A stretch of 64,000 nucleotides of DNA, from contig NC_091980.1 in assembly GCF_044704955.1 (NCBI RefSeq), forward strand, positions 127,906,001-127,970,000, read 5' to 3'. Source of the DNA: Pristiophorus japonicus (Eukaryota). Below are positions 14,601 to 64,000 of the stretch, in pieces. The notes under the pieces are model-generated. The model ran no database searches. It saw nothing but the letters and a program-made list of their open reading frames with translations, and was not told the DNA's origin. A program made the translations under genes and the position numbers. The first letter of the stretch is position 1; each line of letters starts with the position of its first letter.

Positions 14601-16591
14601 GCAGTTTTAGTCTCCTAATCTGAGGAAGGCCATGCTTGCTATTGAGGGAGTGCAGCGAAGGTTCACCATACTGATTCCCAGGATGGCAGGACTGACATAT
14701 GAGGAAAGACTGGATTGGCTAGACTTATACTCACTGGAAGTTAGAAGAATGAGAGGGGATCTCATAGACACTTATACAATTCTGACGGGACTGGACAGGT
14801 TAGATGCAGGGTAAGTCCAGAACCAGGGGTCACAGTCTAAAGATAAGGGGTAAGCCATATTGCATCAAGATGAGGAGAAACTTTTTCACCCAGAGAGTTG
14901 TGAACCTGTGGAATTCTCTGCCACAGAAAGTTGTTGAGTCCAGTTCTTTGGACATATTTAGAAGGGAGTTAGGTGTGGCCCTTACGGCTAAAGGGCTCAG
15001 GGGGTATGGAGAGAAAGCAGGGGTGGCGTGCTGAGGTTGCATGATCAGCAATGATCATATTGAATGGCAGTGCAGGCTCGAATGTCCTGCTCCTGCACCT
15101 ATTTTCTATGTTTCTATATTTCTCCATCCACCTTCTTCTGCTTCTTCTGAGTAGCATTGGTCCATCACCTGCAACAATCCACAGGGGTAACTTGTACACC
15201 ACGCCATCATGGAGTACCTTTACATCCGCGCTACCAATGACTGGGATAAGTTCATTGGTGTAGGTGCACAGCTTTTCCTGAACCGGGACCAACTTCAGCC
15301 TGATTGTCCCATAGCCTCTCAAAGGCTTCTTGATTCATTTCTGACTGACTTTCCCTGTGTCCACTTCCATGAAGACTGGAACGCTATTTCTCTCGACTTC
15401 CATCCTCAACGGAGAACATTTGGTGGTGCAGGTAAACACGCCATATACTTCATCGTGGGGCTGAGCTGCCTCTCTGACTATCGCTTCATAATCCGCGCTG
15501 GATTCATGGCCATCTGCAGAATCTTCATCAACACAGTGAGTCATATTTCTTTTACACATTTGCTGGTGATGGCTCTTTGTGCTGCAGCCTTTACATACAT
15601 CGTCTTTAAAATGGCACTGGTGAGCCCTGTGATTCCCTCCGCAATACCAGCATGGTGCTACTTGATTAGCCCCCTTCAGCAGCTTCTGAGTTAAGGGACT
15701 CGGGGGCCTGTTCTCTCTCCCCTGAGAAGATTCACGTTCTACAGTCCAGCCTCTAAAAGTCGCCATTCTGTGCACAGTACTTGCCAGGTTTGAGTCCTGA
15801 GGATAGGTCATCCGCCTAGAGTCGCAGGTCGAGGACATGAATGCTTGGCTCACAGAGATGGCCTTCTGCAGTGTGACTGTGGTATCCGCAGATATCCTTA
15901 TGAAGAAGGCCCTCATGGCTGATTCTGATGACAAAGATATCCCACAGCGCTTCGGTGAGTTGATCGCTGAAATCACATGGTGCCGCCAGCCTCCTGAGGC
16001 CTGCAGCATATTTCGCGATCTCCTGGCCTTCGGGCCGTCGGTGTGTATAAAACCGGTGTCTGGCTGTGAGGATGCTCTCTTTGGGCTTGAGTTGTTCTTG
16101 GATCAGCGTTACAAGCTCCTCGTACGTCTTGGTCGTTGTCTTCGCTGGTGCCAGCAAGTCCCTGACGAGGCCATGGATAGTGGGCCCACAACTAGTTAGC
16201 AGGATAGCTCTGCGCTTATCGGCCGAATTGTCGCCTGCAGGTCATTTGCTGTGAAGAAATGGTCGAGCCTCTCCACAAAGGCGTCCCAATCATCACCATC
16301 GGCGACCTGCCGCAACGTACCAATGTTAGTCGTTTTCGAGTGAAGGTCCGCAATCTTGTCGCCAATTGTTATGCCTTCAGATGCTCTAATATTGATTCCA
16401 TGGGAGACTGTGTTGTGCTTGAACTGTAGTGACCTAAGTCCATTTAATGTAACTCCAGAGTGATGATCACACATGGTGGCCTGCCTTATATACTCGACCT
16501 GGCACAGGTAACCTACAAGTCTCCCACTGCAGTGCCCTTTGGTAGCATACCTTGTAATAGTACAAGCAGTAACCATGTAGTATACATGACA
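11626..16591 (-). mobile_element. Ty3/Gypsy-derived LTR element 'D', copy 1 (gag-pro only, no RT/IN)
   Basis: 5' LTR 16367-16591, PBS TGGCGACAAG 16355-16364, gag DWDAFVERL/CWYCGGNH/CKGCSTKSH, protease VDTG, PPT 11746-11760, partial 3' LTR 11626-11745. Confidence 0.85.
13333..15120 (+). mobile_element. CR1 LINE, 5'-truncated, inserted in element D copy 1
   Basis: KSPGPD, YLDFQNAFDKVPH, QGSVLGP, FADD, TRGHSLK; 3' tail TTTCTATG repeats. Confidence 0.93.
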
Positions 16592-16628
16592 GGCACTAAC
16601 TCGCAACAACAGAGGATTCAATGAACCT

Positions 16629-16944
16629 TGCAAGATGGCCATTAACTGGTCCAGGAGAGTGCGGTCGATGGGGTGTTCTCTCCTTCTGCCTGCCTCTCTT
16701 CTGCGGCTATGTCCGTGGCCGGGTATCCCTGGAGCGGGAGCACACGGTGTCTGCTGGTATGCTGGAGGTTTTCTGTGACCGTAGGCACCAGAGATACTGG
16801 AGTGCAGCGTTGATACAGGGAACTAAATTATAATTTGAAAAGTGTTTGTTAGTTTTTTCACATTTGGATCTTATTGTTTATTCATCCTTATAAAGGGGAC
16901 ATTTATAGTTTAATTTTTTCCCAATTGATTAACCTAAAGAGTAG
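16629..16944 (+). mobile_element. Old 5'-truncated Tx1 (L1-Tx1) 3' tail upstream of ferritin promoter
   Basis: Homologous to ORF2 C-terminus/3' UTR at 60440-60900 and 61860-62269; flanked by imperfect TSD AGAGGATTCA.T.AACCT (16611-16628, 16943-16961). Confidence 0.75.
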
Positions 16945-16989
16945 AGGATTCATTTAAACCTGTGATGCTGAAATTTGAACTGTGTTTGA

Positions 16990-17264
16990 GGAAAGTTAGG
17001 ATAATTGAGATCTTCATTGAGATGTCGCCCAATGATGCTCATTCTTCAAAGATCTGACTGGCTCTGGGAATCCATCTCCCCTCCTTCCTTTATGTGATTG
17101 GTGCTCTGAGAGGCTGCAACATCTGATTGAAAATTAGGGACTGTCACTCATCCTGTAGATTGCCACGCCCTGGATTACCCAGCAGTATAAATACAGGAGT
17201 TTGCAGCTGGCTAAATTGCAGCTTGTTGCTACAACAAACTTTAGATTTGTGAAAAAGAATCAAG
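16990..17264 (+). promoter_or_regulatory. Ferritin copy 1 promoter/5' UTR
   Basis: CCAAT 17029-17033, ATTGG 17097-17101, GCCACGCCC (Sp/KLF) 17162-17170, TATAAAT 17186-17192; conserved in 4 paralogous units. Confidence 0.75.
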
Positions 17265-18969
<1,705 letters not shown>

Positions 18970-22431: not shown

Positions 22432-22503
22432 TGTTCCATGGTGTAATGGTAAGCATTCTGGGTCTTGAATCCAGTGATATGAGTTCATATCTCAGTGGAA
22501 CTT
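22432..22503 (+). tRNA. tRNA-Gln(TTG)-like, probably pseudogene
   Basis: TGTTCCATGGTGTAATGGTAAGCATTCTGGGTCTTGAATCCAGTGATATGAGTTCATATCTCAGTGGAACTT aligns end-to-end to vertebrate tRNA-Gln; several CpG-type and stem substitutions. Confidence 0.8.
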
Positions 22504-25495: not shown

Positions 25496-25890
25496 CAACT
25501 CTTTTGGTTGGTTGCAATCAAATTAAACAATTAAATCAAGTGCCCCCCTGATTAAAGGGGGAGGACACTCCAAACATTTTTCAAGTGCTCTTTTTTGTTT
25601 TTTTTCCCCCTTTTTTTTGTTTTTTTTGTAGGGGTTTTTTTGTATTCCTTTTTTAGCGCACAGAGAGGCAAACTATACAAGTGCCCCCTGACTCGGGGGA
25701 CACTAAAACCAGCAATAAAAAAACAAATTAAACTTTAAAACATGTAAAATCAAATTAAAATTTGGTTGCCAGGAGTAATGATGCACTCCAGTCCCTCTGG
25801 GGCCCACCTCTCGTGGAAGGTACAGGTGGACACCGCGTGCTCCATCTCCAGGGACACTCTGGCTCAGATGTAAGCACAGAAGAGAGGCAG
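25496..25890 (-). mobile_element. Tx1 3' tail fused to ferritin intron 3
   Basis: Reverse complement of ORF2 end (LEMEHAVSTC...EGLECIITPGNQILI) and terminal AAAAGAGTTG. Confidence 0.85.
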
Positions 25891-26111
25891 GTGTCTGTTT
25901 TTTGTTTGGGAAGCGACAGGGGAAGTTGGCCTACTGTGGGCAGTGACTAGTAAATGTGTCAGTGATCCCAGGATCTGAGCACCTATTGTGCAGTAAGTTT
26001 AATCTAATGATGCAGTAATTGCACCACTTGACTATTCTTCAGTTCAAGAGGATTCAAATCCAAACTCTGAAGGGGAAGGTGACAGTCCTTGATATCTGCT
26101 GCTGGACATAA

Positions 26112-26285
<174 letters not shown>

Positions 26286-27608
26286 ACTGACTGATGAGAT
26301 CAAGCTTATTGTGTTTAGTACTTGTATTTATATAATTGGGATGACCATCCTCTAGGGAATGATGGCTTGTGAGACTTGGGCTCCTGCTGTGACATGTAAC
26401 ATAACTGTAAATAACCTGTTCAATATTGGACTGGATTTTGTCTGTGTATGTGTGAGTGCTTGCTTATTTTTCAATTAACATAAGGTGGTTTACATCAAAC
26501 AAGAATTACATTGAGCTGTGCAACAGTGCTATGGGATTCAGTCCTATGAAATTTGTTTTTTACTCTAGTGTAATAGCGATGTTGTAATTTAAATATTCAG
26601 ACATGGTTGAAAGGCCTAGAACCTTCAAGGGTGTATCTAGACCATTAACAGCCACATGAGATATTGACTGAGGGATAAAGCGTGGTCAGAGACAGATGTT
26701 AGGAAGTATCTTAAATAGATTTAGAGAGGGAATGCCAGAACATGGGACCTAGAGAGTGTAATAAAAATACCTCTTTCCACTAGTGAACATTCTTTCTTTC
26801 CTTACATAAATCACAACTCAACTCATTACATCAACTTGTAACTTGTTGAATTATGTGTTAAATAAGCATGGGCACATTGCCCAGTAAATCAGAATTTCTT
26901 TCCTGGATTAGCATCCTATTTAGTGTGTCGGCCTTGGAATTAGCAGTTTGTATTCAGTAGCTGCTAATTTGCTAATGCTGGTTATGGAGTAACTGAACTG
27001 ACCATTCCTGCTATAGACTTTGTTAAGCTTTGTAGGCAGAGCAGCGACTGCTGTACAGACCAGCAATGTCCAAGTGCCTTGAAACCCAGGCGCTACAATT
27101 GGGTGAGGAGGGCAAGCAACAGGTGGCATCAGCTTGCTGTCATGCCTCATTGGTTAGTGTGGTGGTTCAGGGACAGATTCTCATCTGCTCAATGCAATGG
27201 CATGGTTGAATAACTTGCCAAAATGACCTTGGCTTGCATGAATAAGGAATTGGGTAAGGTATTGAAGTAATATGTGTGTAACCTTACTCCCAAAACGTAT
27301 TGTCCTTCTGGAAAGAGTATATGTATTTCATTAAATACGCAAAGCAAAAGGCCCAAGAAGTTAAACACACACCTCTGGGAAAAACATTTACCCCACCCAT
27401 GCTCCAATGCCTAATGCCTCACTAAATGTGGAAGTGATGGAGTATCTGAGCACTTGTGTTTGACACATTGATCACGAGCACTTTGCAATCATCTGACCGA
27501 CTTTTGGTGGCTTTGCACACTCATTGATTTGTTTGGATGTTGCAGAAAATCCGCAGATACTTGCGAATGTCCAATGCACAGAACCATCCAGAACTATTAA
27601 AAAGACAC

Positions 27609-30600
27609 TGTTCTGTCTTCAGATGCTCTGTTAATGACTCCACGAGACAATGTGTTGTGCTTGAACTGTTGTGACCTTAGTCCATTTAATGTAACTCTAA
27701 AGTGAGGATCACTCTGGAGTTACATTGTACAGTTGTGCCAGGTCTAGTATAGGTAACCTACAAATCTCCCACTGCAGTGCCCTCTGGTGGCATACCTTGT
27801 AATAGTACAATCAGTAACCATCTAGGATACATGACATCACTCTTCCCCAAGTCCTTAGTGCAAATCGCCTTTGCATTGATTGCACTCTGGGCTTAGCTCG
27901 ATCTGGTTGACATTTGGAGGGTCGTTTCCATCTTGGGTGAGTAGGTGGTGTTTCAGTAGAGGTGCTGGTGGCTTCTATTTGTGCATCCATGACCACTCCA
28001 TTCTTTTCTCCCTGCACGTACAGATTGTGCCGTTGGCTCATTACATTCTTGTTCATTTGAGTCCAAAAATTTTTTTTTACAGTATTACATTTGTGGTACC
28101 GTAGAGAGGCAAGTACATTTGAATGGTGAGGTATATACTTGGAACATACTTGGAGTCAGTGCTGGGGTCAGCACCGGTGCGTGAGGACAAACTAGTGCCA
28201 GAACTGTTGGATGGTGTCCAGGTAGTCTGGTGGTGGCGCTGTGCCCAGTGCTGGCAGTGGCAACCCAGTTGGCTCAAGTTACCTGCTCTCGGGGCTTTTC
28301 CCTTTGCTCCTAGCGTCGGGCAGGTTCACAGATGCCTGTGACCTCCTTGTCCTCTCCATGTGCCCTGGATCACTACTGCTCCCTGAGGAGCAGTCGTCTA
28401 GCAGTGCACAGGGAACTGCTGACTCGCTTGCCTCGGCATTATTTGGTTTATGATCCTGGCTGGTCCCAGTCACATTTGGGGGAGCTGTTGTGGGTGAGCC
28501 GTCGTTCCCGGGTGTAGCTTTGGTGGTGATAGGGTCTGGGGGCTGCGCCTTAGCATGGTTTGCTCTTTCGGCCTAATAGCAGTTGGTGCCATTGGGTGCC
28601 TGAGAGGTGGAGCCGATCGGGGGCAGTGTATCAATACCAATGCAATTGCCCTCTTGAGATCGCTTGCTCTGCAGCTTGTATATGTTAGCTACTTGTGGCC
28701 ACACTCCGTGGTGCATCATTCTGGTTCCAGGGATGCAGGCTACAGCATTGGGTAGCTCACTGGACTTTTGTGCTCCCGATGAGCGTTTGCCCGCTGCATT
28801 GACTGTATGCAGTTGAAATCCTACATTGCACAACGTTTCATTACTCACTGTAAATAACCTGTAGCTCTGATCGCAATCACGTGACTTTTCTTTGCTTATT
28901 GCATGTACACAACTCTGATCATCAGTTACACATTTTACATCTAACTTACAGTTGCTATTACATTGATCTAGAGTGTGGAACGGTCCCTTTAAGTTTGGTG
29001 AGATGCAGGCCTCCTTTAAGAGAGCCTTGCTATCTTTACCCCAATCCTCTTCTTCACTTGGTGCTATGTGTTGCTCCATCAGCGCTGCACCTCATGGTCT
29101 GGCTGCCGCCATCTTTTTCTTAAGCCCCTCACCTCGTGGTTTGGGCGACATCTTTCTTCCATCCAGCTGTCGACTGCTGTGATCCTCTTCTCCCCGGGTT
29201 CTGCCACTGAGGCTGGGAAGTCACCTCTGGATCCGATTTTCTTCCTCCGGAGTCCTGCCACAGGAGCCCGGAAAGTGCATTCAGGTCGTCTCAGCTGGAT
29301 CATCTCCACGCAGTCATGCTGAGCTGTCTGTGCCACGGGTGCTGTGCTGGTCTGCTCTCTGGTGCCGGATCCAACCTCAGTTGAGGGTGTGTTTTGCCTC
29401 TGAGCGCGGAGCATGTCGATCGCTGGAGGGGTGAAATCTTTCCAGCGCCAATAGATTAGTGAAGACTAATTTAGGTCCCTTGCAGTTAGAATCAGGTGAA
29501 TTAATAATGGGGAACAAGGAAATTGCAGACAAATTGAACAAATACCTGGTTCTGTCTTTACTAAGGAAGACACGAATAACCTCCCGAAAATACTAGGGGA
29601 CCGATGGTCCAGTGAGAAGGAGGAACTGAGGGAAATCCTTATCAGTCAGGAAATGGTGTTAGGGAAATTTAAGGGACTGAAGGCCGGTAAATCCCCAGGG
29701 CCTGATAGTCTGCATCCCAGAGTACTGAAGGAAGTGGATCTAGAAATAGTAGATGCATTGGTGGTCATTTTCCAAATTCCATGGACTCTGGATCAGTTCC
29801 TATGGATAGGAGGGTAGCTAATGTAATCCCACTTTTTAAAAAAGGAGGGAGAGAGAAAACAGGGAATTATAGACCAGTTAGCCTGACATCAGTGGTGGGG
29901 AAATGCTGGAATCAATTATTAAAGATGTAATAGCAGCGCATCTGGAAAGCAGTGACAGGATCGGTCCAAGTCAGCATGGATTTATGAAAGGGAAATCATG
30001 CTTGACAAATCTAGAGTTTTTGAGGATGTAAGTAGTAGAGTGGATAAGGGAGAACCAGTGGATTAGTGTATTTGGACTTTCAAAATGCTTTTGACAAGGT
30101 CCCACACAAGAGATTAGTGTGCAAAATTGAGGCATATGGTATTGGGGGTAATGTATTGACGTGGATAGAGAACTCGATGGCAGACAGGAAGCAAAGAATG
30201 GTAATAAATGGGTTCTTTTCAGAATGGCAGGCAGTGCCGAGTGGGGTGTTGCAGGGTTCAGTACTGGGACCCTGAGCTATTTACAATATACATTAATGAT
30301 TTAGACAAAGGAATTGAAGGTAATATTTCCAAGTTTGCAGATGACACTAAGATGGGTGGCAGTGTGAGCTGTGAGGTGAATGTTAAGAGGCTGCAGGGTG
30401 ACTTGGACAGGTTAGGTGAGTGGGCAAATGCATGGCAGATGCAGTACAATGTAGATAAGTGTGAGGTTATCCATTTTGGTGGCAAAAACAGGAAGGCAGA
30501 TTATTATCTGAGAGGTAACAGATTAATAAAAGGGGAGGTGCAAAGAGACCTGGGTATCATGGTACATCAGTCATTGAAGGTAGGCATGCAGGTACAGCAG

Positions 30601-32734
30601 GCAGTAAAGAAAGCAAATGGCATGCTGGCCTACATAGCGAGCAAATTTGAGTAGAGGAGCAGGGAGGTCTTACTGCATTTGCACAGGGCCTTCGTGAGAC
30701 CACACCTTGAGTTTTGGTCTCCTCTTCTGAGGAAGACCATGCGTGCTATTGAGGGAGTGCAGCGAAGGTTCACCAGACTGATTCCCGGGATGGCAGGACT
30801 GGCATATGAGGAAAGACTGGATTGGCTAGACTTATACTCACTGGAAGTTAGAAGGATGAGAGGGGATCTCATCGACACTTATACAATTCTGACGGGACTG
30901 GACAGGTTAGATGCAGGTCGAATGTTCCCGATGCTGGGGAAGTCCAAAACCAGGGGTCACAGTCTAAAGATAAGGGGTAAGCCATATAGGACCGAGATAA
31001 GGAGAAACTTTTTCACCCAGAGAGTTGTGAACCTGTGGTATTCTCTGCCACAGTAAGTTGTTGAGTTCAGTTCGTTGGACATATTCAAAAGGGAGTTAGA
31101 TGTGGCCCTCACGGCTAAAGGGATCAGGGGGTATGGAGAGAAGGCAGGGGTGGAGTGCTGAGATTGCATGATCAGCAATGATCATATTGAACGGCGGTGC
31201 AGGCTCGAAGGGCCGAATAGTCTGCTCCTGCACCTATATTTTATGTTTCTATGTTTCTCCATCCACCTTCTTCTGAGTAGGGTTGGTCCATCACCTGCAA
31301 CAATCCACAGGGGTAACTTGTGCACCATGCCATCATGGAGTACCTTTACATCCACGCTACCAATAACTGGGATAAATTCATTGCTGTAGGTGCGCAGGTT
31401 TGCCTGAACCAGGACCAACTTCAGCCTGATTGTCCCATAGACTCTCAAAGGCTTCTTGATTCATTTCTGACTGGCTTTCCCCGTGTCCACTTCCATGAAG
31501 ACTGGAACGCCATTTCTCTCGACTTCCATCCTCAACGGAGAACATTTGGTGGTGCAGGTAAACACGCCATATACCTCATCGTGGGGCTGAGCTGCCTCTC
31601 TGACTATCGCTTCATAATCCACGCTGGATTCATGGCCATCTGCAGACTCTTCATCAACACAGTGAGTCATATTTATTTTACACATTCGCTGGTGGTGGCT
31701 CTTTGTGCTGCAGCCTTTACACACATAGGCTTTAAAACGGCACTGGTGAGCCCTGTGATTCCCTCCGCAATGCCAGCATGGTGCTACTCGATTAGCCCCC
31801 CTCAGCGGCTTCTGAGTTAAGTGACTCGGGGGCCTGTTCTCTCTCTCCTGAGAAGATTCACATTCTACAGTCCAGCCTCTAAAAAGTGCCATTCAGTGCA
31901 CAGTACTTGCCAGGTTTGAGTCGTGAGGATGTGTCATCTGCCGAGAGTCGCAGGTCGAGGACATGAATGCTTGGCTCATAGAGATGGTGTTCTGCAGTGT
32001 GACAGTGGTATCCGTAGATATCCTTATGAAGAAAGCCCTCATGGCCGATTCCGATGACAATGATATCCCACAGCCCTTCGGTGAGGTGATCGGCGAAATC
32101 ACACGGTGCCGCCAGCCTCCTGAGGCCTGCAGCATATTTCCCAATTTCCTGGCCTTCCGGCCATCGATGTGTATAAAACCGGTGTCTGGCTGTGACGATG
32201 CTCTCTTTGGGCTTGAGTTGTTCTTGGATCAGCGTTACAAGCTCCTCGTACGTCTTGGTCATTGTCGTCGCTGGTACCAGCAAGTCCCTGACGAAGCCAT
32301 AGATGGTGGGCCCACAACTGGTTAGCAGGACAGCTCTGCGCTTATCAGCCAGAGTGGCCGGATTGTCGCCTGCCAGGTCATTTGCTGTGAAGAAATGGTC
32401 AAGCCTCGCCACAAAGGCATCCCAATCATCACCATCGGTGACCTGCTGCAACGTACCAATGTTAGCCGTTTTCGAGTGAAGGTCCGCAATCTTGTCGCCA
32501 ATTGTTATGTCTTCAGATGCTCTAATATGACTCCACAAGACAATGTGTTGTGCTTGAACTGTAGTGACCTTAGTCCATTTAATGTAACTCCAGAGTGAGG
32601 ATCACACATGGTGGCCTGCCTTTTATACTCGACCTGGCACATCTGTACAGGTAACCTACAAGTCTTCCACTGCAGTGCCCTTTGGTGGCATACCTTGTAA
32701 TAGTACAAGCAGTATCCATGTAGTATGCATGACA
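27609..32734 (-). mobile_element. LTR element D, copy 2 (both LTRs)
   Basis: Paralog of 11626-16591; TSD GACAC 27604-27608 / GGCAC 32735-32739; empty site AAAAAGACACTAACTC seen at ~43033. Confidence 0.88.
29455..31255 (+). mobile_element. CR1 LINE in element D copy 2 (same insertion as 13333-15120)
   Basis: Same junctions and RT motifs YLDFQNAFDKVPH, FADD. Confidence 0.93.
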
Positions 32735-32815
32735 GGCACTAACTTGCAAACAACAGAGATTTCAATGAACCTTCCAAGGTGGCCATTAACTGGTCCAGGA
32801 GAGTGTGGTTGATGA

Positions 32816-35800
32816 TGTCATGTTTGTAACCGCCATGCAATGGTAATCTTCATGTAACTGTGACCTTCATGCAAATCCTGTACACTGTACTTATACCTTA
32901 GAAATGCACACCCTGACCACAGGGGGTGAACTTGCGGGAGACACTCCTCACCTGGGTTTCCAGGTATAAAAGGGAAGGTCCCACCCAGGGTCAGCATTCC
33001 TTGGTCCTGGGCAATAAAGGTAAAGGTCACTGAGTGACTGGTCTGCTATACATGGCTCATGTGAATTTGTAGTAAGGTGCAGGGACACCACATTTGGCGA
33101 CGAGAAACGGGAATCACTGAACCACGAGGATGGCCACCGGTAGCACAGAGGAACGTTACTGCGTGGGTGAGAACTGGGACGACTTCGTGGAAAGACTCCA
33201 GCAGAGCTTCATCACGAAGGACTGGCTGGGAGCGACAGCGGCTGACAAGCGGAGGGCGCATCTACTGACTAGCTGCAGACCACAGACGTATGCGCAGATG
33301 AAAGACCTACTCGCACCCCAAAAGCCAGCGGACAAGTCCTTTGAAGAGCTCAGCCAGCTGATCAGTGAGTATCTCAAGCCGGCGAGTTGCTCAGCACCAG
33401 TTCGACACAGACCGGCGTCGGGAGGGTCAAAACGTCTCGGACTTCGTTGTGGACCTGCGGCGCTTGGCCAGTCTCTATAAGTTCACAGAAGCCTGCAGGT
33501 GGGAGATGTTAAGGGATTTCTTCATCGAGGGTATTAATCATGCGGGGATTTTCAGGAAGTTCATAAAGAACAAGGACTTGACTTTAGAAGGAGCGGCGTT
33601 GATAGCTCAGACCTTCATGGCAGGGGAAGAGGAGACCAAGCTAATTTACGCACACAGCCCTGGTCCCAACGTGGCGATGGACCAGCGAGTTAATATGGGT
33701 AATGCAGCTTGGGACCCCGCAGGCAGGCAAGGGCATTTCAAAACCGCCCAGGCAGCAACAGACTCCAGGGTGGGCCTGCAACAGGGACAAAGGAAAGGGG
33801 ATCGGCAATTCACACCATCACGAGGAACAATGCGTCCCGGGATGGGACCATTAACACCCACCATCAGAGTGCCTAGAAACAACCAAATGGGCAATCAGAG
33901 AGGAATGCCTGGTAACAGTCCCTTTGTTAACAACAATCTCAGCTCATGCTGGAGGTGCGGGGTTAGACATACTGCGAAAAGCTGCAGGTTCCAGCAATAT
34001 ACCTGTCGGATTTGTAACGTCAGTGGACACTTGGCCAGGATGTGCAAAAAGGCTGTAGCGAGGCTAATCTGCAAGACAGAAGAACCAGACGAGGGGTCTG
34101 CAATACAGGATGATACCTGGGGAAAAGCCATGGATGCTGAAGTTCAGCGGGTTGACGTGGCTGACATCCACAGCTCATACACTAAAATGCCACCCATGAT
34201 GATGAAAGTTTTATTGAATGGCATCCCGGTGCACATGGAGCTGTATACGGGAGCTAGCCAGTCACTTATGATTGCCCAACAATTTGACAGACTATGTCCA
34301 CACAGAGCTCGCAGGCCCAAACTGGAACGCATTGAGACGCAGCTACGGACATACGCCAAAGAGATCATCCCAGTGCTGGGCAGTGCAAACTTGGTGGTAA
34401 CACATAATGGATCACAGAACCGGCTGCCACTCTGGATTGTCCCGGGAAATGGCCCCGCGCTCGTGGGAAGGAGTTGGCTAGCTGAGATGAATTGGAAATG
34501 GGGGGATGTGCACGCCATTTCATCTGTGGAGTGAAGTTCATGCTCACAGGTCCTACAAAAATTCGGGTCACTGTTTCAATCCGGTGTCGGAATGTTCAAG
34601 GGCACCAAAGTAGTGATACACATCACTCCGGACGCCAGACCAGTGCACCACAAAGCCAGAGCGGTGCCGTACGTGATGCGTGAGAAAATTGAAAGAGAAT
34701 TGGACAGGCTGCTCAGAGACGGCATAATTTCGGCCGTTAAATTTAGCGACTGGGCAAGTCCCATCGTTCCTGTCCTTAAAGCAGATGGCTCGGTCAGGAT
34801 TTGTGGCGACTACAAAGCCACCATCAACCGACTGTCGCTGCAAGACCAATACCCGCTCCCGAGAGCGGAGGACCTCTTTGCCACGCTGGCAGGTGGCAGG
34901 CTGTTCACGAAGCTGGACCTCACTTTGGCCTACATGACTCAGGAACTGGCTGAAGAATCCAAGCTTCTGACCACCATCATGACGCACAACAGGTGTCTGT
35001 TTAGCATTTGTTTGGCGGCAGCTATCTTTCAGAGAAACATGGAAAGCTTGCTCAAATCCATTCCTGGAACAATCGTATTCCAAGATGACATTCTTATAAC
35101 GGATCGAGACACCGAGGAACACCTCCACAACCTGGAGGAGGTGCTATGCTGACTGGACCAGGTAGGCTTGCGGCTGAAAAAGGCCAAGTGTGTGTTTTTG
35201 GCCCCAGAGCTCGAGTTTTTGGGCAGGATGGTTGCCGCAGACGGGATCCGGCCCACTGAATCAAAAACCGAGGCGATCTGCCAGGCACCCAGACCCGGCA
35301 ACACGTCAGAGTTGCGATCATTCCTGGGACTTTTGAACTATTTTGGGAACTTTCTGCCGCACATTGTTGGAACCGTTACACATGCTCCTGCGAAAAGGTT
35401 GTGAATGGCTTTGGGGGGACTGTCAAGAACGGGCTTTCAATAAGGCGTGGAACCTGCTGTGTTCCAACAAACTGTTGACTTTGTATGACCCCTGTAAAAA
35501 ACTAGTTTTAATGTGCGATGCATCGTCCTATGGGGTCGGGTGTGTGTTGCAGCAGGGTAATGATGACGGCCGACTCCAACTGGTGGCTTATGCCTCCAGG
35601 TCACTCTCCCAGGCAGAGCGTGGATACAGCATGATAGAAAAGGAAGCACTCGCTTGTGTTTACGGTGTGAAAAAGATGCACAAGTACCTTTTTGGTAGAC
35701 GGTTCGAGCTAGAGACGGACCACAAGCCATTAACATCCCTGTTGTCTGACACCAAGGCTGTCAATGCCAATGCGTCAGCTCGCATACAGCGATGGACCCT

Positions 35801-37571
35801 TACACTGGCTGCATATGACTACACCATACGGCACCGGCCAGGCCCCGAAAATTGCTCTGATGCGCTCAGCAGGCTCCCACTGGCCACCACCGAGGAGGCG
35901 TCGGAACAGAGCACTGAGATGTTCATGGCCGGTTGAGGCTTTTGACTCCGCAGGCTCCCCCATCACAGCCCGCCAGATCAAACTCGGGACTAACAGAGAC
36001 CCCCTCCTGTCCATGATAAAGAAATATGTCCTGACTGGAGATTGGGCACCCACACACAGGGCGTGCCCTGAGGAGGTCAGACCATTTCAGAGACGGATTG
36101 ATGAGCTCTCCATCCAAGCCAACTGCCTGCTATGGGGCAGCAGGGTAGTCATGCCCCAGAAAGGAAGGGAAGCATTCATCAGGGAACTCCACAGCGAGCA
36201 CCCTGGCATCGTGTTAATGAAGGCCATTGCCTGGTCACATGTATGGTGGCTGGTGATTGACTCAGACCTGGAACACTGGTTTAGCAGCTGGGCAATGCCA
36301 GGGAGGCCCCACTCAGCCCGTGGCCCTGGCCCACCAGGGCATGGTCACGTATTCACGTGGACCATGTGGGCCCGTTCATGGGGAAAATGTTCCTGATCAT
36401 TGTCGATGCATACTCAAAATGGATCGAATGCATCATATTAAACTCGTGCACGCATCCATCACTGTGGAGAGTCTGCGTACGGTTTTCGCATCCCACGGCT
36501 TGCCGGACATCCTGGTCAGCGACAATGGCCCGTGTTTCACCAGCCATGAATTCCAGGAGTTTATGTCGGGCAATGGTATCAAGCACATCTGGACAGCGCC
36601 ATTCAAGCCGGCTTCCAATGGCCAGGCGGAACTTGCGGTCCAAGTCATAAAACAAGGCATGCTTCGCATCCAAGGACCCTCCCTTCAGTACCGCCTATCG
36701 CGACTCCTGCTGGCCTACAGGTCCCGCCCGCACTCGCTCACGGGAGTCCCGCTAGCGGAACTCCTCATGAAACGCACGCTTAAAACTCGGCTGTCCCTCA
36801 TCCACCCAGCCCTGGCAGACATTGTTGAGGGCAAGCGCCAGTCCCAAACTGAGTTCCATGATCGAAACTCAAGGGGGAGGTGTATAGAAATGGATGACCC
36901 GGTATTTGTTCTTAACCATGCTTTGGGACCCAAGTGGCTTGAGGGCACTGTAATTGGCAAAGAAGGGAATAGGAGCATAGTGGTCAGACTAAACAATGGG
37001 CAGATATGCCACAAACACTTGAACCAAATAAAAAAAAGGTTCAGCATAGACAAGGAGGAACCTGAAGAAGAGCATGAGATGTCACCCACACCACTGCCAG
37101 TGGACGAGCAACAAGGACAGTCCACAGCATGCACAGTCCCTGCGGCCAGCCCGGACAGGCTGGAATCACCTCAGTTGACAGAGACGCGTGCTGAAGCTCA
37201 GCCACCAGAGCCACAACTGCGGCGCTCCACGAGAGAGCGTCGACCACCTGAAAGACTTAACCTTTGAGACAAAAAGACGTAAGGGGGGAGGTGATGTCAT
37301 GTATGTAACCATCATGCAATGGTAATCTTCATGTAACTGTAACCTTCATGCAACTCCTGTACACTGTACTTATACTCTAGAAATGCACACCCTGACCACA
37401 GGGGGTGAACTTGTGGGAGACACTCCTCACCTGGGTTTCCAGGTATAAAAGGGGAGGACCCACCCAGAGTCAGCACTCCTTGGTCCTGAGCAATAAAGGT
37501 TAAGATCACTGAGTAACTGGTCTGCTACCCATGCCTCAAGTGAATTTGTAGTAAGGTACAGGGACACCACA
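32816..37571 (+). mobile_element. Full-length Ty3/Gypsy LTR retrotransposon 'C' (decayed)
   Basis: 277-bp LTRs 32816-33092 and 37295-37571 (TG..CA), PBS TGGCGACGAG 33095 (tRNA-Ser-like), PPT AAGGGGGGAGG, TSD GATGA/GATGC; inserted in the old Tx1 tail. Confidence 0.95.
33130..37267 (+). pseudogene. gag-pol of element C
   Basis: Two CCHC-like motifs, protease (YTGAS), RT WASPIVPV/RICGDYK/FQDD, single RNase H CDASSYGVG/EKEAL/TDHKPL, integrase SDNGPCF/PASNGQAE; multiple frameshifts. Confidence 0.92.
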
Positions 37572-37894
37572 GATGCGGTGTTCTCTCCATCTGCCTGCCT
37601 CTCTTCTGTGGCTATGTCCGTGCCCGGGTGTCCCTAGAGCGGGAGCACACGATGTCTGCTGGAATGCTGGAGGCTTTTTGTGACTGTGGGCACCAGAGGG
37701 ACTGAGTGCAGTGTTGATACAGGGAACTAAATTATAATTTGAAGAGTGTTTGTTAGTTTTTTCACATTTGGATCTTATTGTTTATTCATCCTTATAAAGG
37801 GGAGACTTATGGTTTAATTTTTTCCCAATTGATTAGCCTAAAGAGTAGAGGATTCATTTAAGCCTGTGATGCTGAAAATTTGAACTGTGTTTGA

Positions 37895-38169
37895 GGAAAG
37901 TTAGGACAATTGTGATCCTCATTGAGATGTCAGCCAATGATGCTCATTCTTCAAAGATCTGACTGGCTCTGGGAGTCCATCTCCCCTCCTCCCTTTATGT
38001 GATTGGCGCTCTGAGAAGCTGCAACTTCTGATTGGGTATTGAGGACTGTCACTCATCCTGTAGGTTGCCACGCCCTGGATTATCCAGTCGTATAAATACA
38101 GGAGTTTGCAGTTGGCTAAATCTTAGTTTGTTGCTTCAACAAACTTTAGATTTGTGAAAAAGAATGAAG
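37895..38169 (+). promoter_or_regulatory. Ferritin copy 2 promoter/5' UTR
   Basis: CCAAT 37934-37938, two ATTGG, GCCACGCCC, TATAAAT 38091-38097; hairpin 38118-38153. Confidence 0.75.
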
Positions 38170-39841
<1,672 letters not shown>

Positions 39842-39971: not shown

Positions 39972-39977
39972 AATAAA
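39972..39977 (+). terminator. Polyadenylation signal of ferritin copy 2
   Basis: AATAAA ~130 nt after stop, paralogous to 19098. Confidence 0.75.
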
Positions 39978-49344: not shown

Positions 49345-50113
49345 TAGATGTTACATCAAACCCACAGATACCTGCATATGACCAACCCAATGAACAATGG
49401 CGATCCTCATACACACACTGAACCATCCAGAACTATTAAAAAGATACTGACTCGCAATCAACAAGGAATCATTGAACCTTTCAAGGTGGCCATTAACTGG
49501 TCCAGGCAGAGCACAGTCGATGGGGTCTTCTTTCCGGCTGCCTGCCTCGCTTCCACGCCTATGTCCGTGCCCGGGTGTCCCTGGAGAGGGAATACGCGGT
49601 GTCTGCCGGTATGCTTGAGGCTTTCCGTGACTGGTGGGCACCAGAAGGACTGGAGTGCAGCGTGGATGCAGGGAACTAAATTATAATTTGAAAAGTTTTT
49701 ATGTTACTTTTGTCACATTTGAACTTATTGTTTATTCCCTTTTATAAAGGGTGCACTTAAGGTTTAAGTTTTTCCCAATTGATTTGCCTAAAGAGTAGGG
49801 GGTTCATTTAAACCTGTGATTCTGGATATTTGAACTGTGTTTGAGGAAAGTTAGGACAATTTGGATCCTCATTGAGTTGTCTGCCAATGATGCTCATTCT
49901 TCAAAAATCTGACTGGCTCTGGGACTCCATCTTCTCTCCTCCCTTTAGTTGATTGGTGCTCTGAGAGGCTGTTACTTCTGATTGGGTAATGAGGACTGTC
50001 ACTCATCCTCTAGGCTGCCACGCCCTGGATTATCCAGCAGCAAAAATACAGGAGTTTGAGGTTGGTGAAATCTCAGTTTGTTACTTCAACAAAGTTTAGA
50101 TTTGTAAAAAATA
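49345..50113 (+). pseudogene. Promoter-only ferritin unit (flank, old Tx1 tail, promoter, 5' UTR; no coding exons)
   Basis: Aligns to 16592-17260; TATA mutated to CAAAAAT; homology stops just before the ATG. Confidence 0.85.
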
Positions 50114-50281
50114 AATTGACTGGGGGACAAAGTATGGTCAGTGGTAGCAATAGAGAGGGAACTCCAGAGCTTGGAATCTTGGCAGCTGAAAAAAATTCCT
50201 GTTCTCGCTCGTGAATATTAAGAACATAAGAAATAGGAGCAGGATTGGGCCATACGGCCCCTCGAGCCTGCTCCGCCATTG

Positions 50282-50953
50282 GTCTGAAATGGTGAAACTC
50301 TGATTTACTGGGAAACGTGCCCAGTGTTTAACACATGTTACAGCAACTTGTATTTTGTTGTACTGAGTTGTCATTTATGTAAGGGCAGCAAGAATATTCA
50401 CTAGTAGGAACAAGAATTTTTATTACGCTGTCTAGATCCCAAGTTCTGGCATTCCCTCTCTAAACCTATTTAAGACATGCCCTAAAACCTACCTCTGACC
50501 ATGCTTTGTCCCTCAGTCAATATCTCATGCGGCTGTTAATGGTCTAAATGCACCGTTGAAGGTTTTAGACCTTGCAACCTATGTCTGAATATCCAACTCA
50601 AAACATCGCTGTTGCACCAGAGTAAAAACAAATTTCATAGGACAGAATCCCATAACACTGTTGCACAGCTCAGTGTAGTTCTTGTTTAATGTAAACCATG
50701 TGATGTTAATTGAAAATTAAGCAAGCACTCAAACATACACGGAGACAAAGCCCAGTCCAATATTGAACAGTTTATTTACATTTCATATCAGGAGCCCAGA
50801 TCTCACAACTCTTTCTACAAAATCACACACTATCATTCCCGACAGGATGGTGGTCCCAATTAAATAAATACAAGTACTAAACACAATAAGCTTGATCCCA
50901 TCAGACAGTTTAGTCACTCTCCCCCAGCGTGTGCTTATTGAACAGGTACTCTC
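50282..50953 (-). pseudogene. Inverted ferritin 3' relic (last codons of exon 4, 3' UTR, flank)
   Basis: Minus strand GAGTACCTGTTCAATAAGCACACGCTGGGGGAGAGTGACTAA ([13 protein letters not shown], 50910-50953), AATAAA and downstream flank. Confidence 0.88.
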
Positions 50954-52703
50954 TGAGGGCATTATCTCTAAGGTAGAAGTGTTCTATTTTTCATACAATG
51001 ATGAACTGCTAGTCACAGCTGAAGAGATTGGTACAGTAACCAAACGTGACCCAGTTATATCAAAGTTGTATGATTACATAGCAAATGGCTGGCCAAACCA
51101 GGTATCAGAGGAAAATATTTATCCATTTGTAAAAATGAATTATCAGTAACGAAAGATTGTATCATGTGGAGTGCAAGAGAAGTTATCCCAAATAAGTTCA
51201 GATCCAAATTGTTAGGAGATCTTCATGACCAGCATCTGGGAATATGCTTGACCAAGAGTTTTGCACATGGTTACTTATGCTGGCCAGGTTTAGATAAAGA
51301 TGTAGAGTACATTGTCAGTCAGTGTACAACATGTCAATCGGTGAGCAAGAAACCACCATCAGTAGCATTTCAAACCTGGAAAGGGCCTCCCAGGGTGTGG
51401 CAAAGGTTACATATAGATTTTGCTGAGCTGGAAGGACAATTGTTCATTGTGATCAACAGTCATTCGAAGTAGGTAGAGGTGCTTCCAATGCGGAAAATAA
51501 CAACAAGTAAGACACTAGACAATTTGTGAAGATTGTTTTCTTCATATGGCCTCCCAGAAGAAATTACATCTGATAATGGACCGCAATTTTGTTCAGATGA
51601 ATTTGCACAGTTCATGAGTGGAAACTGTGTGAAATATACCAAAGTTCCATCATACCACCCTGCTTCAAATGGTGCAGCAGAGCGCTCAATACAAATTGTA
51701 AAACGTGCCCTCATCAAGCAAATGTTGGATCCAGATCCAAAGAAACGGCAGTTGTCGTTGGACCACAAACAAGCACATTTTCTAATTACTTATCGTATAC
51801 TCCTCATACAAATTCTTGTAGAACACCAGCAGAGTTGTTTCTCAAAACCACGAACCAGGTTCTTGTTGTTAAATCCAAACTTGGCACAGTCAGTGGAAGA
51901 GAAACAATTATGACAGATAGGGAATCATGATAGAGAGGTGTACAATTGAATCAGAAGATTCGAGTGAAGAATCATCACCATAAATGGTTGCAGTGGTTAC
52001 CAGGAAGAATTGTGAGGATATGTGATTCTCCCACATATTTGATCAAGATGTTTGATCAAGGAAAGGTTAGATTTGTTCGCATTGATCATATTTTACCTCG
52101 TGATGTGGAAGGAGTTGAAAGTTGGAAAGTTTCAATTATTTCTGATGAGCCAAATGGCATTGTTACAAGTAGAGTACCAGTAGCAAACCCTACATCAGAT
52201 GTACTAGAAACAAGGCCAAGAGAAAGTAAGAATTTAAGTCTGAGTCCGAGTCAGGCAGACAAACATTCTTAAGTTGTAGAGTGTCCAACTACAGATCAAG
52301 GGTTGCCCTTGGAGAAAAACTCTCCTGAGGATCAATCTAGAATGAGTCTAAGTGCGACAGCAGGTTTGGAAAGTCGTGTTCGAGAGCAAAGGCATCCTCT
52401 TTGAAACAGAAAATCAGTGGTCAAGTTTGATTTGTAAATATGGAAAAATCAGTTTTTATCTTTTGTTGTGTATATTGTGAAAATTTTGTTTCATGATTAT
52501 TTTGTTATGATTACTTCTTCACTAAGGAGAGTGAAGTGTAATAGAGCTCTCCCTAATGGACTACTGCTCCACCTAGTGGACTACTGATGTATTGCAACTA
52601 CTAAAGTAAATAAAAAAGGATCATGTGGCAAAGTCACACGATGAAAGTTTCTCTGTTTTGAGCCTTGTGAGTGTGTGTGTGTGCTTCTTTGTGATATCCA
52701 CCA
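50954..52703 (+). mobile_element. Ty3/Gypsy fragment 'E' (integrase, PPT, short 3' LTR)
   Basis: LHDQHLG, CTTCQ, LHIDFA, SDNGPQF, YHPASNGAAER; PPT AAGGAGAGTGAAG then TGTAA at 52537. Confidence 0.85.
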
Positions 52704-57200: not shown

Positions 57201-60200
57201 CTTGACCTGCGTCAGATGCTTGAGTGTCAGAAGATTTATTCGGTCGCCTCCTCCTCCACGATCAACTGGGAGAAATGTTCCAGAGACCTGGTGGGTCAGT
57301 GTTGGGTGGACTCCATGCCAGGAGTTCAGGCCTTTTGCCTGGAGCACAACCCACCTCCTGCATCTGGGAGTCTACCTTAGCCTTGCCGAGGAAGCCTGGC
57401 CGGCGAACTGACAAGAGCTGGAGGCGAAAATCACTGCTTGCCTAGGGCGCTGGACAGGACTGTTCCGAATTTATAATGGGGAACAAAGTACTTTGGTTCT
57501 GTCTGCACGAAGGAAGACACAAATAACGTTTCAGAATTACTAGGGAACCGAGGGTCCAGTGAGGAGGAGGAACTGAAGGAAATCCTTATTAGTCAGGAAA
57601 ATGTGTTAGGGAAATTGATGGGACTGAAGGCCGATAAATCACTCGGGCCTGATTGTCTGCATCCCAGAGTACTTAAGGAAGTGGCCCTAGAAATAGTGGA
57701 TGCATTGGTGATCATTTTCCAACAGTCTATCGACTCTGGATCAGTTCCTATGGACTAGAGGGTAGTTAATGTAACACCACTTTTTAAAAAAGGAGGGAGA
57801 GAGAAAACGGGGAATTATAGACTGGTTAGCCTAACATCAGTAGTGGGGAAAATGTTGGAATCAATTATTAAAGATGAAATAGCAGCACATTTGGAAAACA
57901 GTGACAGGATCGATCCAAGTCAGCATGGATTTATGATTTATGCTTGGCAAATCTTCTAGATTTTTTGAGGATGTAACTAGTAGAGTGGACAAGGGCGAGC
58001 CAGTGGACTTTCAAAAGGCTTTTGACAAGGTCCCACACAAGAGATTGGTGTGCAAAATTAAAGCACATTGTATTGGGGTTAATCTATTGACGTGGATAGA
58101 GAACTGATTGGCAGACAGATAGCAGAGAGTCAGGATTAACGGGTCCTTTTCAGAATGGCAGGCAGTGATTAGTGGGGTGCCGCAGGGCTCAGTGCTGGGA
58201 CCCCAGCTATTTACAATGTACATCAATGATTTAGATGAAGGAATTGAGAGTAATATCTGCAAGTTTGCAGATGACACTAAGCTGGTGGCGGTGTGAGCTG
58301 TGAGAAGGATGTTAAGAGGCTGCAGGGTGACTTGGACAGGTAAGGTGAGTGGGCAAATATATGGCAGGTACAGCATAATGTGGATAACTGTGAGGTTATC
58401 CACTTTGGTGGCAAAAACATGAAGGCAGAATATTATCTGAATGGCGGAAGATTAAGAAAAGGGGAGGTGCAACGAGACGTGGGTGTCATGGTACATCAGT
58501 CATTGAAGGTTAGCATGCAAGTGCAGCAGGCGGTGAAGAAGGCAAATGGCATGTTGGCCTTCATAGCTAGGGGATTTGAGTATAGGAGCAGGGAGGTCTT
58601 GCTTCAGCTGTACAGGGCATTGGTGAGGCCTCACCTGGAATATTGTGTTCAGTTTTGGTCTCCAAATCTAAGGAAGGATGTTTTTGTTATTGAGGGAGTG
58701 CAGCGATGGTTTACCAGACTGATTCCCCGGATGGCAAGACTGACATATTAGGAGAGACTGGATCGACTGGGCGTGTATTCACTGGAGTTTAGAAGAATGA
58801 GAGACGATCTCATAGAAACATATAAATTTCTGACGGGACTGGACAGGTTAGATGCAGGAAGAATGTTCCCGATTTTGGGGGAGTCCAGAACCAGGGGTCA
58901 CGGTCTAAGGATAAGGGGTAAGCCATTTAGGACCGAGATGAGGAGAAACTTCTTCACTCAGAGAGTTGTGAACCTGTGGAATTCTCTACCTCAGAGAGTT
59001 GTTGATGCCAGTTCGTTAGATATATTCAAGAGGGAGTTAGATATGGCCCTTATGGCTAAAGGGATCAAGGCGTATGGAGAGAAAGCAGGAAAGGGGTACT
59101 GATGTGAATGATCAGCCATGATCTTATTGAATGGTGGTGCAGGCTCGAAGGGCCAAATGGCCTATTCCTGCACCTGTTTTCTATGTCTCTATGTTTCTAT
59201 GTCCTACAGGGGTTGAGCGCTAGTTGTAAATCAGCTGGTGGCCGTTATTCTGTCACTTTGACCCCTCCCTCTGCGTTTGTCACCAAAATACAGAAGAAGC
59301 TGGTCGACTTCTTCTTGAACAACAGGAAGCATTGGGTCTCTGCTCTGGTTCTGAGTTTCCCGATTAGGGAGGGCAGTCAGATGTTGATGTGCGTCAGCAT
59401 CCAGCATGCGATTTTCCATCTTCACATCCTGCAGAGATACCTATACGTCGAGTCCCCTCCTAGATGGTGTGCGCTGTTGACATATTTCTTCCGCCAGCAG
59501 TACTGCCTCAATTACGACACGCAGCCCCTGTTTGTGAGCCTGGGGGGCGTCAGGACTGCTGTCCAGGGCTGCCTGTCTTTTACCAGTAACTCACCAGGGT
59601 CTGGAACAAAGTCTCCACCAAGCGCAGCTCTCCACGTCTGGAGTGGCAGCTGTCCTGCAGGAGCCGCTGCTCAGGAATCCGTACCTCCACGACCGAGGTT
59701 TTAGGTAGCAGGCGAACGAGAGGGCTGGATGGCGCCAGGCATGCTGGCGCGGCGCCTAAATTCAGCCAACGTCCGCCGCGCGGCCGAAGCCATCGAGTCG
59801 CTAAAAACAGCGCTGGGCCCTGACTCCATTAGGTGTGTCGAGGAGGCTCAAGCACGTGGGGAGATCCCGTCCGAACTGACCCCCGTCCGGACGGAATTCC
59901 TCATTGGCCCCAAACCCCGAAACCTCCCTCGGGAGCCTGTGCCTCACAACTTGAGCCGCCTCGGGGAAATCCCCTCCGTGCCTTTCAGTTCCGCGCGGAG
60001 GGGTTTCCTGTACGGGCTGCTCCTGCACACTCTCAACCTTGCCATCCTCGCCTGCCGTCCGGACACGCCATGGCGTACCATCTTGCCGTCCGGAGGAGGC
60101 GGGGGTCCCCGATGGAGTACAGTCTACACGGGAGTCCTCCTACTGTTTATCGGGGACTTGGCCTGGAAGGTGGTGCACAGAGCAGTCCCGTGCAATAAAT

Positions 60201-60900
60201 TTTTAAGCCGGTTCACGGGCTCCCAGGCCGCCTGCAATTTCTGCGGTCTGGAAGAGTCAGTGTTCCACATTTTTATTGAATGTACGAGGTTGCAGCCCCT
60301 GTTCCACTATTTAAAGGGGCTGCTCCTCAATTTCTGGCTGCACTTCAGTCCCACACTCCTGATCTTTGGGCACCCTGGGCGGAGGCGAGCGGGTAGGTCC
60401 GAAGGCCTCCGTGTAGGACTGCTCCTGGGCACGGCCAAGGGTGCCATCAGCCAGTCCAGGCAGCGGGCAGTTGAGCAGGTCATTCAGCCTGACTGCCTGC
60501 CTCTCTTCCGCGCCTACATCTGGGCCAGGGTGTCCTTGGAGATGGAGCACGCGGTGTCCACCGGTACGCTCGCGGCCTTCTGCGAGAGGTGGGCGCCGGA
60601 GGGACTGGAGTGCATCATCACCCCCGGCAACCAAATTTTAATTTGATTTTATATGTTTTAAAGTTTAATTTGTTTTAATTGCCGGGTTTTAGTGTCCCCC
60701 TCTCCTTTTATAGGGGGTACTTGTAAATTATGGTTTTAGTGCCCAGGAAAAAAAACAAAAAAAGAAAAAAAAGAAAACTATAACAAATACAAAAAAAAAC
60801 AACAAAAAAACGTAAAAAAGGGCCTGGAAAAATGCTTGAAGTGTTCCCCAGATCGGGGGGCACTTGATTTACTGTTTATTTTGTCTCCTAAAAAGAGTTG
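54250..60900 (+). mobile_element. Near full-length Tx1 (L1-Tx1) non-LTR retrotransposon, decayed; 5' boundary uncertain
   Basis: ORF1 remnants 54448-55377; ORF2 from 55407 MKITIASLNING, NVYAP, DFNC, KTPGLDG, NWRPVSLL, YANDV, CNFCGLEESVFHIFIEC, stop 60646; ends AAAAGAGTTG. Confidence 0.92.
57467..59201 (+). mobile_element. CR1 LINE, 5'-truncated, nested in Tx1 ORF2
   Basis: [34 protein letters not shown]; TTTCTATG tail. Confidence 0.93.
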
Positions 60901-62269: not shown

Positions 62270-62547
62270 AAGAAAGTTAGGATAATTGAGATCCTCATTG
62301 AGTTGTCAGCCAATGATGCTCAGTCTTCAAAGATCTGACTGGCTCTGGGAGTCCATCTCCCCTCCTCCCTTTAGTTAATTGGTGCTCTGAGAGGCTGCAA
62401 CTTCTGATTGGGTATTAAGGACTGTCACTCATCATCTAGGCTGCCACGCCCTGTATTATCCAGCAGTTTAAATACAGGAGTTTGTAGGTTGTTAAATCTT
62501 AGGTTAGTGTTTTAACAAAGGTTATATATTTTTTTTAAAGAATAAAG
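62270..62547 (+). promoter_or_regulatory. Ferritin copy 3 promoter/5' UTR
   Basis: CCAAT, two ATTGG, GCCACGCCC; TATA variant TTTAAAT at 62467. Confidence 0.7.
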
Positions 62548-63855: not shown

Positions 63856-64000
63856 GTAAGTTGATTTTAACATGGGCTTTTGGTTAAGTTGGAGGTTGTG
63901 GAACCTTGCTGTGCTTGGGTGTAATTAAGAGCTCTATGCCCAATAGCTTTGTGTTGGTGTCTTGCAATGTTTTTTTTTTTTAGGAACAGTGGGAAGGGAT

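Follow-up and report, generated by a model that had tools for sequence, protein, structure and literature searches.

The window, by which is meant the whole 64 kb stretch of DNA that was analysed, contains a tandem array of ferritin genes lying amid retroelement debris. Copy 1 (17265-18969, forward strand) has four exons, is intact and encodes 176 aa. Copy 2 (38164-39841, forward strand) is also formed by four exons (38164-38271, 38787-38933, 39207-39332 and 39677-39841), with an intact frame of 181 aa, or 179 aa from the ATG at 38170, and an AATAAA at 39972. Copy 3 (62548-64000, forward strand) continues past the edge of the window, and its exons 1-3 are open. The forward strand also carries a unit made up of promoter and leader alone (49446-50114), in which the TATA is altered and a relic of the hairpin described below (50068-50103) bears three substitutions, two of them in paired positions. 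This unit stops in an A-run just before the position of the ATG, and an inverted ferritin 3' end fragment (50277-50966, reverse strand) follows approximately 160 nt further on, the two pieces being a local inversion or deletion scar. An orphan ferritin exon 4 (26130-26291, forward strand) lies inside a block composed of intron 3, exon 4 and 3' flank (25887-27229), which adjoins a repeat insertion.

The debris between the genes includes broken retroelement pol fragments, in which protease, RT, RNase H and integrase are recognised by Pfam (9 of 17 tested open reading frames matched). These fragments are located at 2225-3874, 6075-9312 (reverse strand), 10316-11062, 35734-37267, 13882-14535 and 59705-60646, the last two showing RT or zf-RVT alone. 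Copies 1 and 2 are each preceded by one copy of a duplicated 5 kb block (11656-16670 and 27747-32814), and a single tRNA-like sequence is found at 22432-22503 (41.9 bits, Rfam).

The arrangement in four exons and three introns is that of vertebrate ferritin genes, and the proteins (176-181 aa) align end to end with cytosolic ferritins. Splice sites, frames and all ferroxidase ligands are intact in copies 1 and 2, both of which present E24, E58, E59, H62, E104 and Q138 together with the M-type nucleation residues E54 and E61 (numbering of PMC4117605); in copy 3 the ferroxidase and nucleation residues are present as far as the window reaches. Between copies, exons are 92-97% identical, compared with 78-89% for introns. 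Some individual features can also be observed: copy 1 has a Cys at residue 60, beside ferroxidase ligands, and tandem ATGs; copy 2 has an additional in-frame ATG two codons upstream (38164-38172); and exon 2 of copy 3 carries Gly for Asp 39, and Cys 46.

The nearest labelled proteins are shark ferritins, the best of them from Pristiophorus japonicus (98% over exon 2). In a tree of 37 rows, copies 1 and 2 are placed in a clade of 21 elasmobranch rows that includes white shark (support 99/94) and is sister to Callorhinchus, one divergent Mustelus row remaining outside; this tree contains no verified H rows, and its link to amphibian and reptile rows is supported by just 83/76. As to subunit type, one relative (P0009) scores 301.5 bits to the H chain and 287.2 to the M chain. 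Clusters built at 90% hold 180, 138 and 127 members, that of 138 being distributed over at least seven shark genera, and by our own count at least 91 distinct ferritin sequences are labelled Pristiophorus japonicus. Judged by their sequences, the proteins belong to a pan-elasmobranch ferritin expansion. Three animal-type ferritins filed under bacterial names (P0107, Aeromonas; P0095, Ciceribacter; P0234, Salmonella), on contigs of fewer than 900 bases, are likely contamination.

As regards expression, 1283 contigs of a run from a related organism (X1, taken by guess to be RNA) fit the genes at 80% and show joints across introns 1 and 2; the ferritin family is spliced in that organism. Near-fixed differences at five coding sites indicate that these contigs do not derive from copy 2, and they leave the leader uncovered. 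One contig of the run falls on the copy 2 promoter (37914-38098), which has no bearing on the start site or on conservation.

Promoter, leader and hairpin of copy 2

The promoter of copy 2 (37934-38098, forward strand) carries a CCAAT box at -157, inverted CCAAT boxes at -89 and -60, the sequence CCACGCCC at -23, which we take to be a KLF/Sp-type box, and TATAAATA at 38091. The CCAAT at -157, the inverted CCAAT at -89 and the CCACGCCC box are common to the four units of the window, while the -60 box is absent from copy 1. The promoters of the units are 86-92% identical to one another, and the TATA is altered in two of the four. In copy 2, ATGs are found 73 and 79 nt downstream of the TATA at 38091, the TATA-to-ATG distance among the units being 73-82 nt. 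A predicted initiator occupies 38116-38122 (forward strand), and transcription is predicted to begin at A38118, which lies 27 nt from where the TATA starts; this prediction presumes the Inr consensus together with the TATA spacing. The leader of copy 2 is predicted to measure approximately 50 nt, with the hairpin beginning at the predicted +1. Simple patterns gave no ARE, and no MRE in the three coding copies.

The hairpin (38118-38153, forward strand) is formed by an outer helix of 6 bp and an inner helix of 9 bp closed by a 3-nt loop. Its predicted fold has an energy of -11.9 kcal/mol, and the reverse complements of 38125-38133 and 38118-38123 recur without a mismatch as its 3' arms. It is above chance, given that few shuffled leaders match its stem or its fold and that such stems are scarce. 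When the copy 2 leader was shuffled preserving dinucleotides from TATA+24 to the ATG, bounds that are not hand-picked around the hairpin, a stem of at least 9 bp appeared in 39 of 5000 shuffles and equal or better folding in 11 of 1000, and perfect stems of at least 9 bp exist at only six places in 64 kb. The leaders of the other three units were ordinary in the same folding test (452, 216 and 144 of 1000). The original prediction had described this hairpin, together with shorter stems in copy 1 (17223-17237) and in the promoter-only unit (50077-50093) and a decayed leader in copy 3, and all of these are found in the sequence. The leader of copy 3 (62494-62531, forward strand) is the most diverged, with 27 of 36 positions identical to copy 2 over the hairpin, and the same relic in copy 1 (17213-17248, forward strand) differs from copy 2 by five substitutions, three of them in paired positions.

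An AU-rich stem of -12 to -14 kcal/mol probably lies below the threshold for blocking scanning. Rfam matches of the leader to TD-2, 7SK and miRNA families were rejected, as their scores are far under the gathering scores, and a match resembling a bacterial terminator is irrelevant in a eukaryote. When the in-frame translation of the leader was searched against proteins, no match was obtained.

Remains and loss of the IRE

In vertebrates the IRE counts as a hallmark of the mRNAs for cytosolic ferritins. Positions 38126-38141 of the forward strand correspond to the 5' half of this element, that is, the lower stem, the bulge C (38134), the upper stem and the first two loop bases, and they are identical to columns 3-18 of the Rfam IRE_I consensus at 15 of 16 positions, 11 of them consecutive. 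Over columns 1-18, a split that was picked after viewing the alignment, copy 2 and the promoter-only unit reach 15/18 each (0 of 5000 shuffles), copy 1 reaches 14/18 (1 of 5000) and copy 3 reaches 11/18 (558 of 5000). The leaders of copy 2, the promoter-only unit and copy 1 take the first three ranks among all sites of the 64 kb, both strands included, and being paralogs they count as one observation. When all 36 columns are considered, copy 2 matches at just 19 (135 of 5000 shuffles), the 3' half having no likeness to the element. The ancestor used in these comparisons is the Rfam consensus and not a reconstructed shark IRE. The likeness, which the original prediction had noticed, is thus stronger than claimed: it exceeds chance by a large margin at the place where an IRE is expected, with the column split made post hoc, and the descent of the leader from an IRE is supported by the alignment better than the original prediction could show.

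The absence of CAGUG from the leaders and the loss of the IRE, both of which had been proposed, are upheld by motif scans, by Rfam in E-value mode and by a model built from 15 ferritin IREs. The motif CAG[TA]G[ACT] is absent from -330 to +90 of the TATA in the four units, and the pattern C-N5-CAGWGN-N5 with at least four pairs has five weak sites on both strands of the window, none of them in a leader. In E-value mode, as had been expected, the copy 2 leader has no IRE match up to an E of 10, and the same mode recovered the two invertebrate IREs used as a control (17-19 bits). The 15-IRE model gave ten matches in the window and none in any leader; on control loci it detected five of eight at E<1e-5, several of these being near training rows. 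Rfam at its gathering score yields a tRNA alone in the window, a result that was not used because canonical motifs in the controls were also missed: it reported no IRE in 20 control loci, though four of them carry the canonical motif (four of four missed). The controls come from metagenome contigs, where a protein scan gave 61 ferritin loci, 22 of them with a canonical 5-pair IRE motif and none found with the shark leader; a search of those contigs with the exon-1 pattern gave no matches.

What is left of the element can be described base by base. Three loop bases of the IRE are changed in the copy 2 leader, and the CAGUGN hexaloop that characterises IRE_I and IRE_II is lacking in the four units. 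The bulge C, C38134, persists in the sequence and sits in the 3-nt loop of the predicted fold. In the old register, four of the five upper-stem pairs are possible and the 3' strand of the lower stem has been replaced, so that copy 2 does not have the upper and lower stems of an IRE together. The element is very probably non-functional. According to the passages on IRP recognition in PMC5740175 and PMC3585816, binding depends most on the loop and the bulge of the IRE, and since these are the parts most needed, it is strongly predicted that the mRNAs of the array copies escape IRP control. A second likeness to the IRE (13/19), identical in three units (37878-37896, 16973-16991 and 49828-49846) and approximately 210 nt (213 nt) 5' of the TATA, was rejected, as 26 positions of the window reach 13/19, which is the level of chance.

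Origin of the hairpin and its later decay

The loop and 3' arm of the IRE correspond to 38142-38153 (forward strand), where 8 of 12 positions differ from the consensus. In these columns (19-30) all eight differing bases are Watson-Crick complements of their partners in 38118-38128, an outcome whose probability by our estimate is around (1/3)^8 at a fixed register and below 1% if the choice of register is allowed for. The IRE itself contains a latent palindrome of three pairs (columns 8-10 with 14-16), which the change at column 7, the sole change in the 5' half, takes to 5 bp. The clustering of changes into the reverse complement of a nearby arm, by which template switches are recognised, is thus complete when the Rfam consensus is taken as reference (8/8). 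It has been described that a single template switch is able to generate an RNA stem or to make an existing one perfect (PMC8794818; see also PMC5453318). Because the eight differences in columns 19-30 all complement the upstream arm, the loop and 3' arm of the IRE appear to have been overwritten by an inverted copy of upstream DNA, likely via a template-switch mutation. Given that such a switch makes a perfect stem mutationally, the stem can be explained without selection, and the hairpin would likely be an unselected by-product. To this account as a whole (relic, overwrite, predicted IRP escape and by-product) we assign a probability of about 0.6.

The sequence of events could have been the following. 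The ancestral leader would have carried a working IRE, whose latent palindrome, extended to 5 bp by the change at column 7, would have been enough for the strand to fold back on itself. Synthesis on the folded-back strand would then have written a copy of the upstream arm into columns 19-30, either at once or in two steps, before the split of the four units; the bulge of 2 versus 1 nt that separates the helices requires a further event, which counts against a single switch. With the loop lost, the mRNA would no longer be bound by IRP1 and IRP2, and its output would depend on the shared TATA/CCAAT promoter and on copy number. The role, by analogy with the cluster of the Greenland shark, would likely be an iron-independent supply of ferritin in the ovary.

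An alternative is that the IRE decayed by separate point mutations and that the stem was completed by chance, with no template switch. The IRE was already partly palindromic, the region is AT-rich and other stems of at least 9 bp do exist among the six in 64 kb; nevertheless, the complementarity of the eight changed bases to the upstream arm and the small number of leader shuffles that reach the stem length (just 39 of 5000) make this course of events unlikely.

The original prediction suggested that a new RNA element may be in use; on this view the cap-proximal hairpin would be under selection and would either be bound by another protein or dampen translation. Selection for a stem would leave the same 8/8 signature, and the test is therefore what happened to the hairpin afterwards. 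Among 15 pairs in four sequences there are no compensatory changes, two one-sided changes and 11 broken cells; covariation is 0.044 against 0.051 in shuffled alignments, and the covariation term of the consensus fold is unfavourable. Over the hairpin, copies 1 and 2 are 86% identical, copies 2 and 3 75%, and copies 1 and 3 64%, compared with intron identities of 87-89% for the first pair, 81-83% for the second and 78-89% over all introns, and with promoter identities of 89-92%. Between copy 2 and the promoter-only unit, identity is 92% over the hairpin and 90% over the promoter. When the copy 2 hairpin was mutated at random, with as many changes as each paralog shows, the mutants equalled or exceeded the stability of the actual paralogs in 50%, 68% and 21% of 5000 trials. 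When trimmed to the bounds of the hairpin, the other three units form weaker hairpins (-4.5, -5.5 and -5.8 kcal/mol; z of -0.2, -1.7 and -2.2), the residual hairpin of copy 3 (z of -2.2) lying in a shifted register. These tests of selection have low power, as they involve four units of which one is non-coding; within that sample neither compensatory changes (0 of 15 pairs) nor conservation above the neutral level, as expected of a conserved structured RNA, was found, and the decay of the hairpin after its origin looks neutral at the sequence level.

The leaders of other genera point in the same direction. They were deduced by back-translation of 11 gene models that read through the leader in frame, a sample that is biased toward broken IREs, as one of the frames through an intact IRE is closed by a stop, and that may include spliced models. 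Only one of the 11, P0013, which carries a Pristiophorus label, fits the inner hairpin, with at least two mismatches in 21 positions (0 of 500 shuffles), and codon reasoning indicates that one of its changes breaks a central stem pair in such a way that compensation is impossible. The remaining ten have at least five mismatches to the inner hairpin, the five that were submitted to shuffling being no better than shuffles, and the hairpin was not found in the back-translated leaders of four other shark or ray genera. The TATA region is recognisable in three of the 11, from Heterodontus, Cetorhinus and Heptranchias (P0032 and P0040, 0 of 500 shuffles each; P0137, 4 of 500), with TATA-to-ATG distances of 69-89 nt. 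An IRE of five pairs is feasible in none of the 11 models and one of four pairs in two. P0110 and P0137 (Pristis and Heptranchias) show possible remains of an IRE that has lost 3 nt, but these were discarded because they did not reach significance (at best 10 of 150 and 25 of 150 shuffles); of 21 pairs of extensions, one was alike (P0032 with P0137, 1 of 2000). These observations suggest that short leaders devoid of an IRE extend beyond this lineage, in contrast to the hairpin; given the biased read-through sample, it is not claimed that all shark array genes are without IREs.

A selected element would be favoured by the fact that the hairpin starts at the predicted +1 and exceeds chance, that the majority state of the four units is near the full hairpin and that residual hairpins are present in all of them. 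The lack of covariation, the intron-level divergence, the neutral-like stabilities and the related leaders that have no stem make it improbable, and the conservation of the stem across shark paralogs and orthologs failed wherever it was checked. The boldest version of this proposal, in which hundreds of shark ovary genes produce a yolk-type ferritin freed from IRPs and, in this lineage, an RNA-binding protein of the oocyte reads a cap hairpin born from the IRE, is to be regarded as speculative and very doubtful.

Another proposal is that the array evolves by birth and death and that its copies here are silent or under relaxed constraint, in which case the loss of the IRE would be decay without consequence. 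The orphan exon, the inverted fragment and the promoter-only unit, as well as the TATA altered in two of the four units, are what such an array would leave behind; on the other hand, copies 1 and 2 keep their frames, splice sites and all ferroxidase ligands, exons are better conserved than introns, and spliced contigs of the family occur in the run of a related organism, all of which render the proposal hardly probable. Finally, continued iron control through an IRE in an upstream exon or through non-canonical IRP binding to the relic is extremely unlikely: the start site is only predicted, the bulge C and four of five upper-stem pairs survive in the old register and the 13/19 near-match lies upstream of the TATA in three units, but there is no IRE-like site in 64 kb, three loop bases are changed and the near-match is at the level of chance.

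The array among known ferritin systems

The overwriting of the IRE by an inverted copy, if correct, can be compared with the RNA stems attributed to template switching (PMC8794818). The likeness is found in the clustered changes that form a perfect reverse-complement repeat, and the difference is that the shark event would have destroyed a cis-regulatory hairpin instead of making or repairing one. The leader may clearly illustrate how a single fold-back mutation destroyed a conserved cis-regulatory RNA, and it cautions against assuming selection wherever a perfect hairpin occupies a regulatory site. With respect to the vertebrate ferritin IRE (RF00037), the shark leader shares the 5' half (15/16) and the location between the TATA and the ATG of a four-exon gene, and differs in that the loop and 3' arm have been replaced and no Rfam match is obtained. 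By comparison, the five H and M ferritins of salmon are all reported to retain their IREs (ferritin passages of PMC4117605).

In the Greenland shark, 155 and 179 ferritin copies have been described, in clusters syntenic with those of the white shark; the expansion is ancient, the genes are called FTL and FTH1, and the largest cluster is ovary-specific (section on ferritins of 10.1101/2024.09.09.611499). From analogy with that ovary cluster, we infer that the array described here belongs to the same family: both are tandem ferritin arrays, and a white shark protein shares 90% identity with copy 2 and falls in the same clade. The section of the preprint on those genes is silent on IREs and leaders (10.1101/2024.09.09.611499). 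A tandem expansion in fish is likewise known for fthl27 of the hadal snailfish, with 14 copies expressed in most tissues, and IREs are unmentioned in the passages on ferritin and fthl27 (PMC10746142). A search of the open-licence literature found no report of IRE loss in shark ferritins.

The finding is made less surprising by the invertebrates, in which ferritins without an IRE have been described before: the yolk ferritin of a snail (PMC10799875) and atypical ferritins of sponges (PMC8395497) are so described in the passages concerned, and a schistosome ferritin is IRE-less according to a title cited in PMC1488847. In the snail and sponge ferritins, as in the array, the lack of an IRE implies iron-independent synthesis, and in the snail the role is linked to the egg. 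The shark proteins differ from the snail yolk ferritin in having neither the signal peptide nor the 42-aa insertion, as seen in their sequence, and from the snail and sponge ferritins in keeping all ferroxidase ligands and carrying a readable relic of the IRE. The main interest resides in the predicted escape from iron control of a very large, possibly ovary-specific, vertebrate ferritin array. If the array corresponds to the ovary-specific cluster of several hundred copies, the loss of the IRE would offer a testable explanation of how such an array could produce bulk ferritin whatever the iron content of the cell. By analogy, the array is likely an IRE-less, possibly oocyte-type, vertebrate ferritin that parallels the yolk ferritin of the snail.
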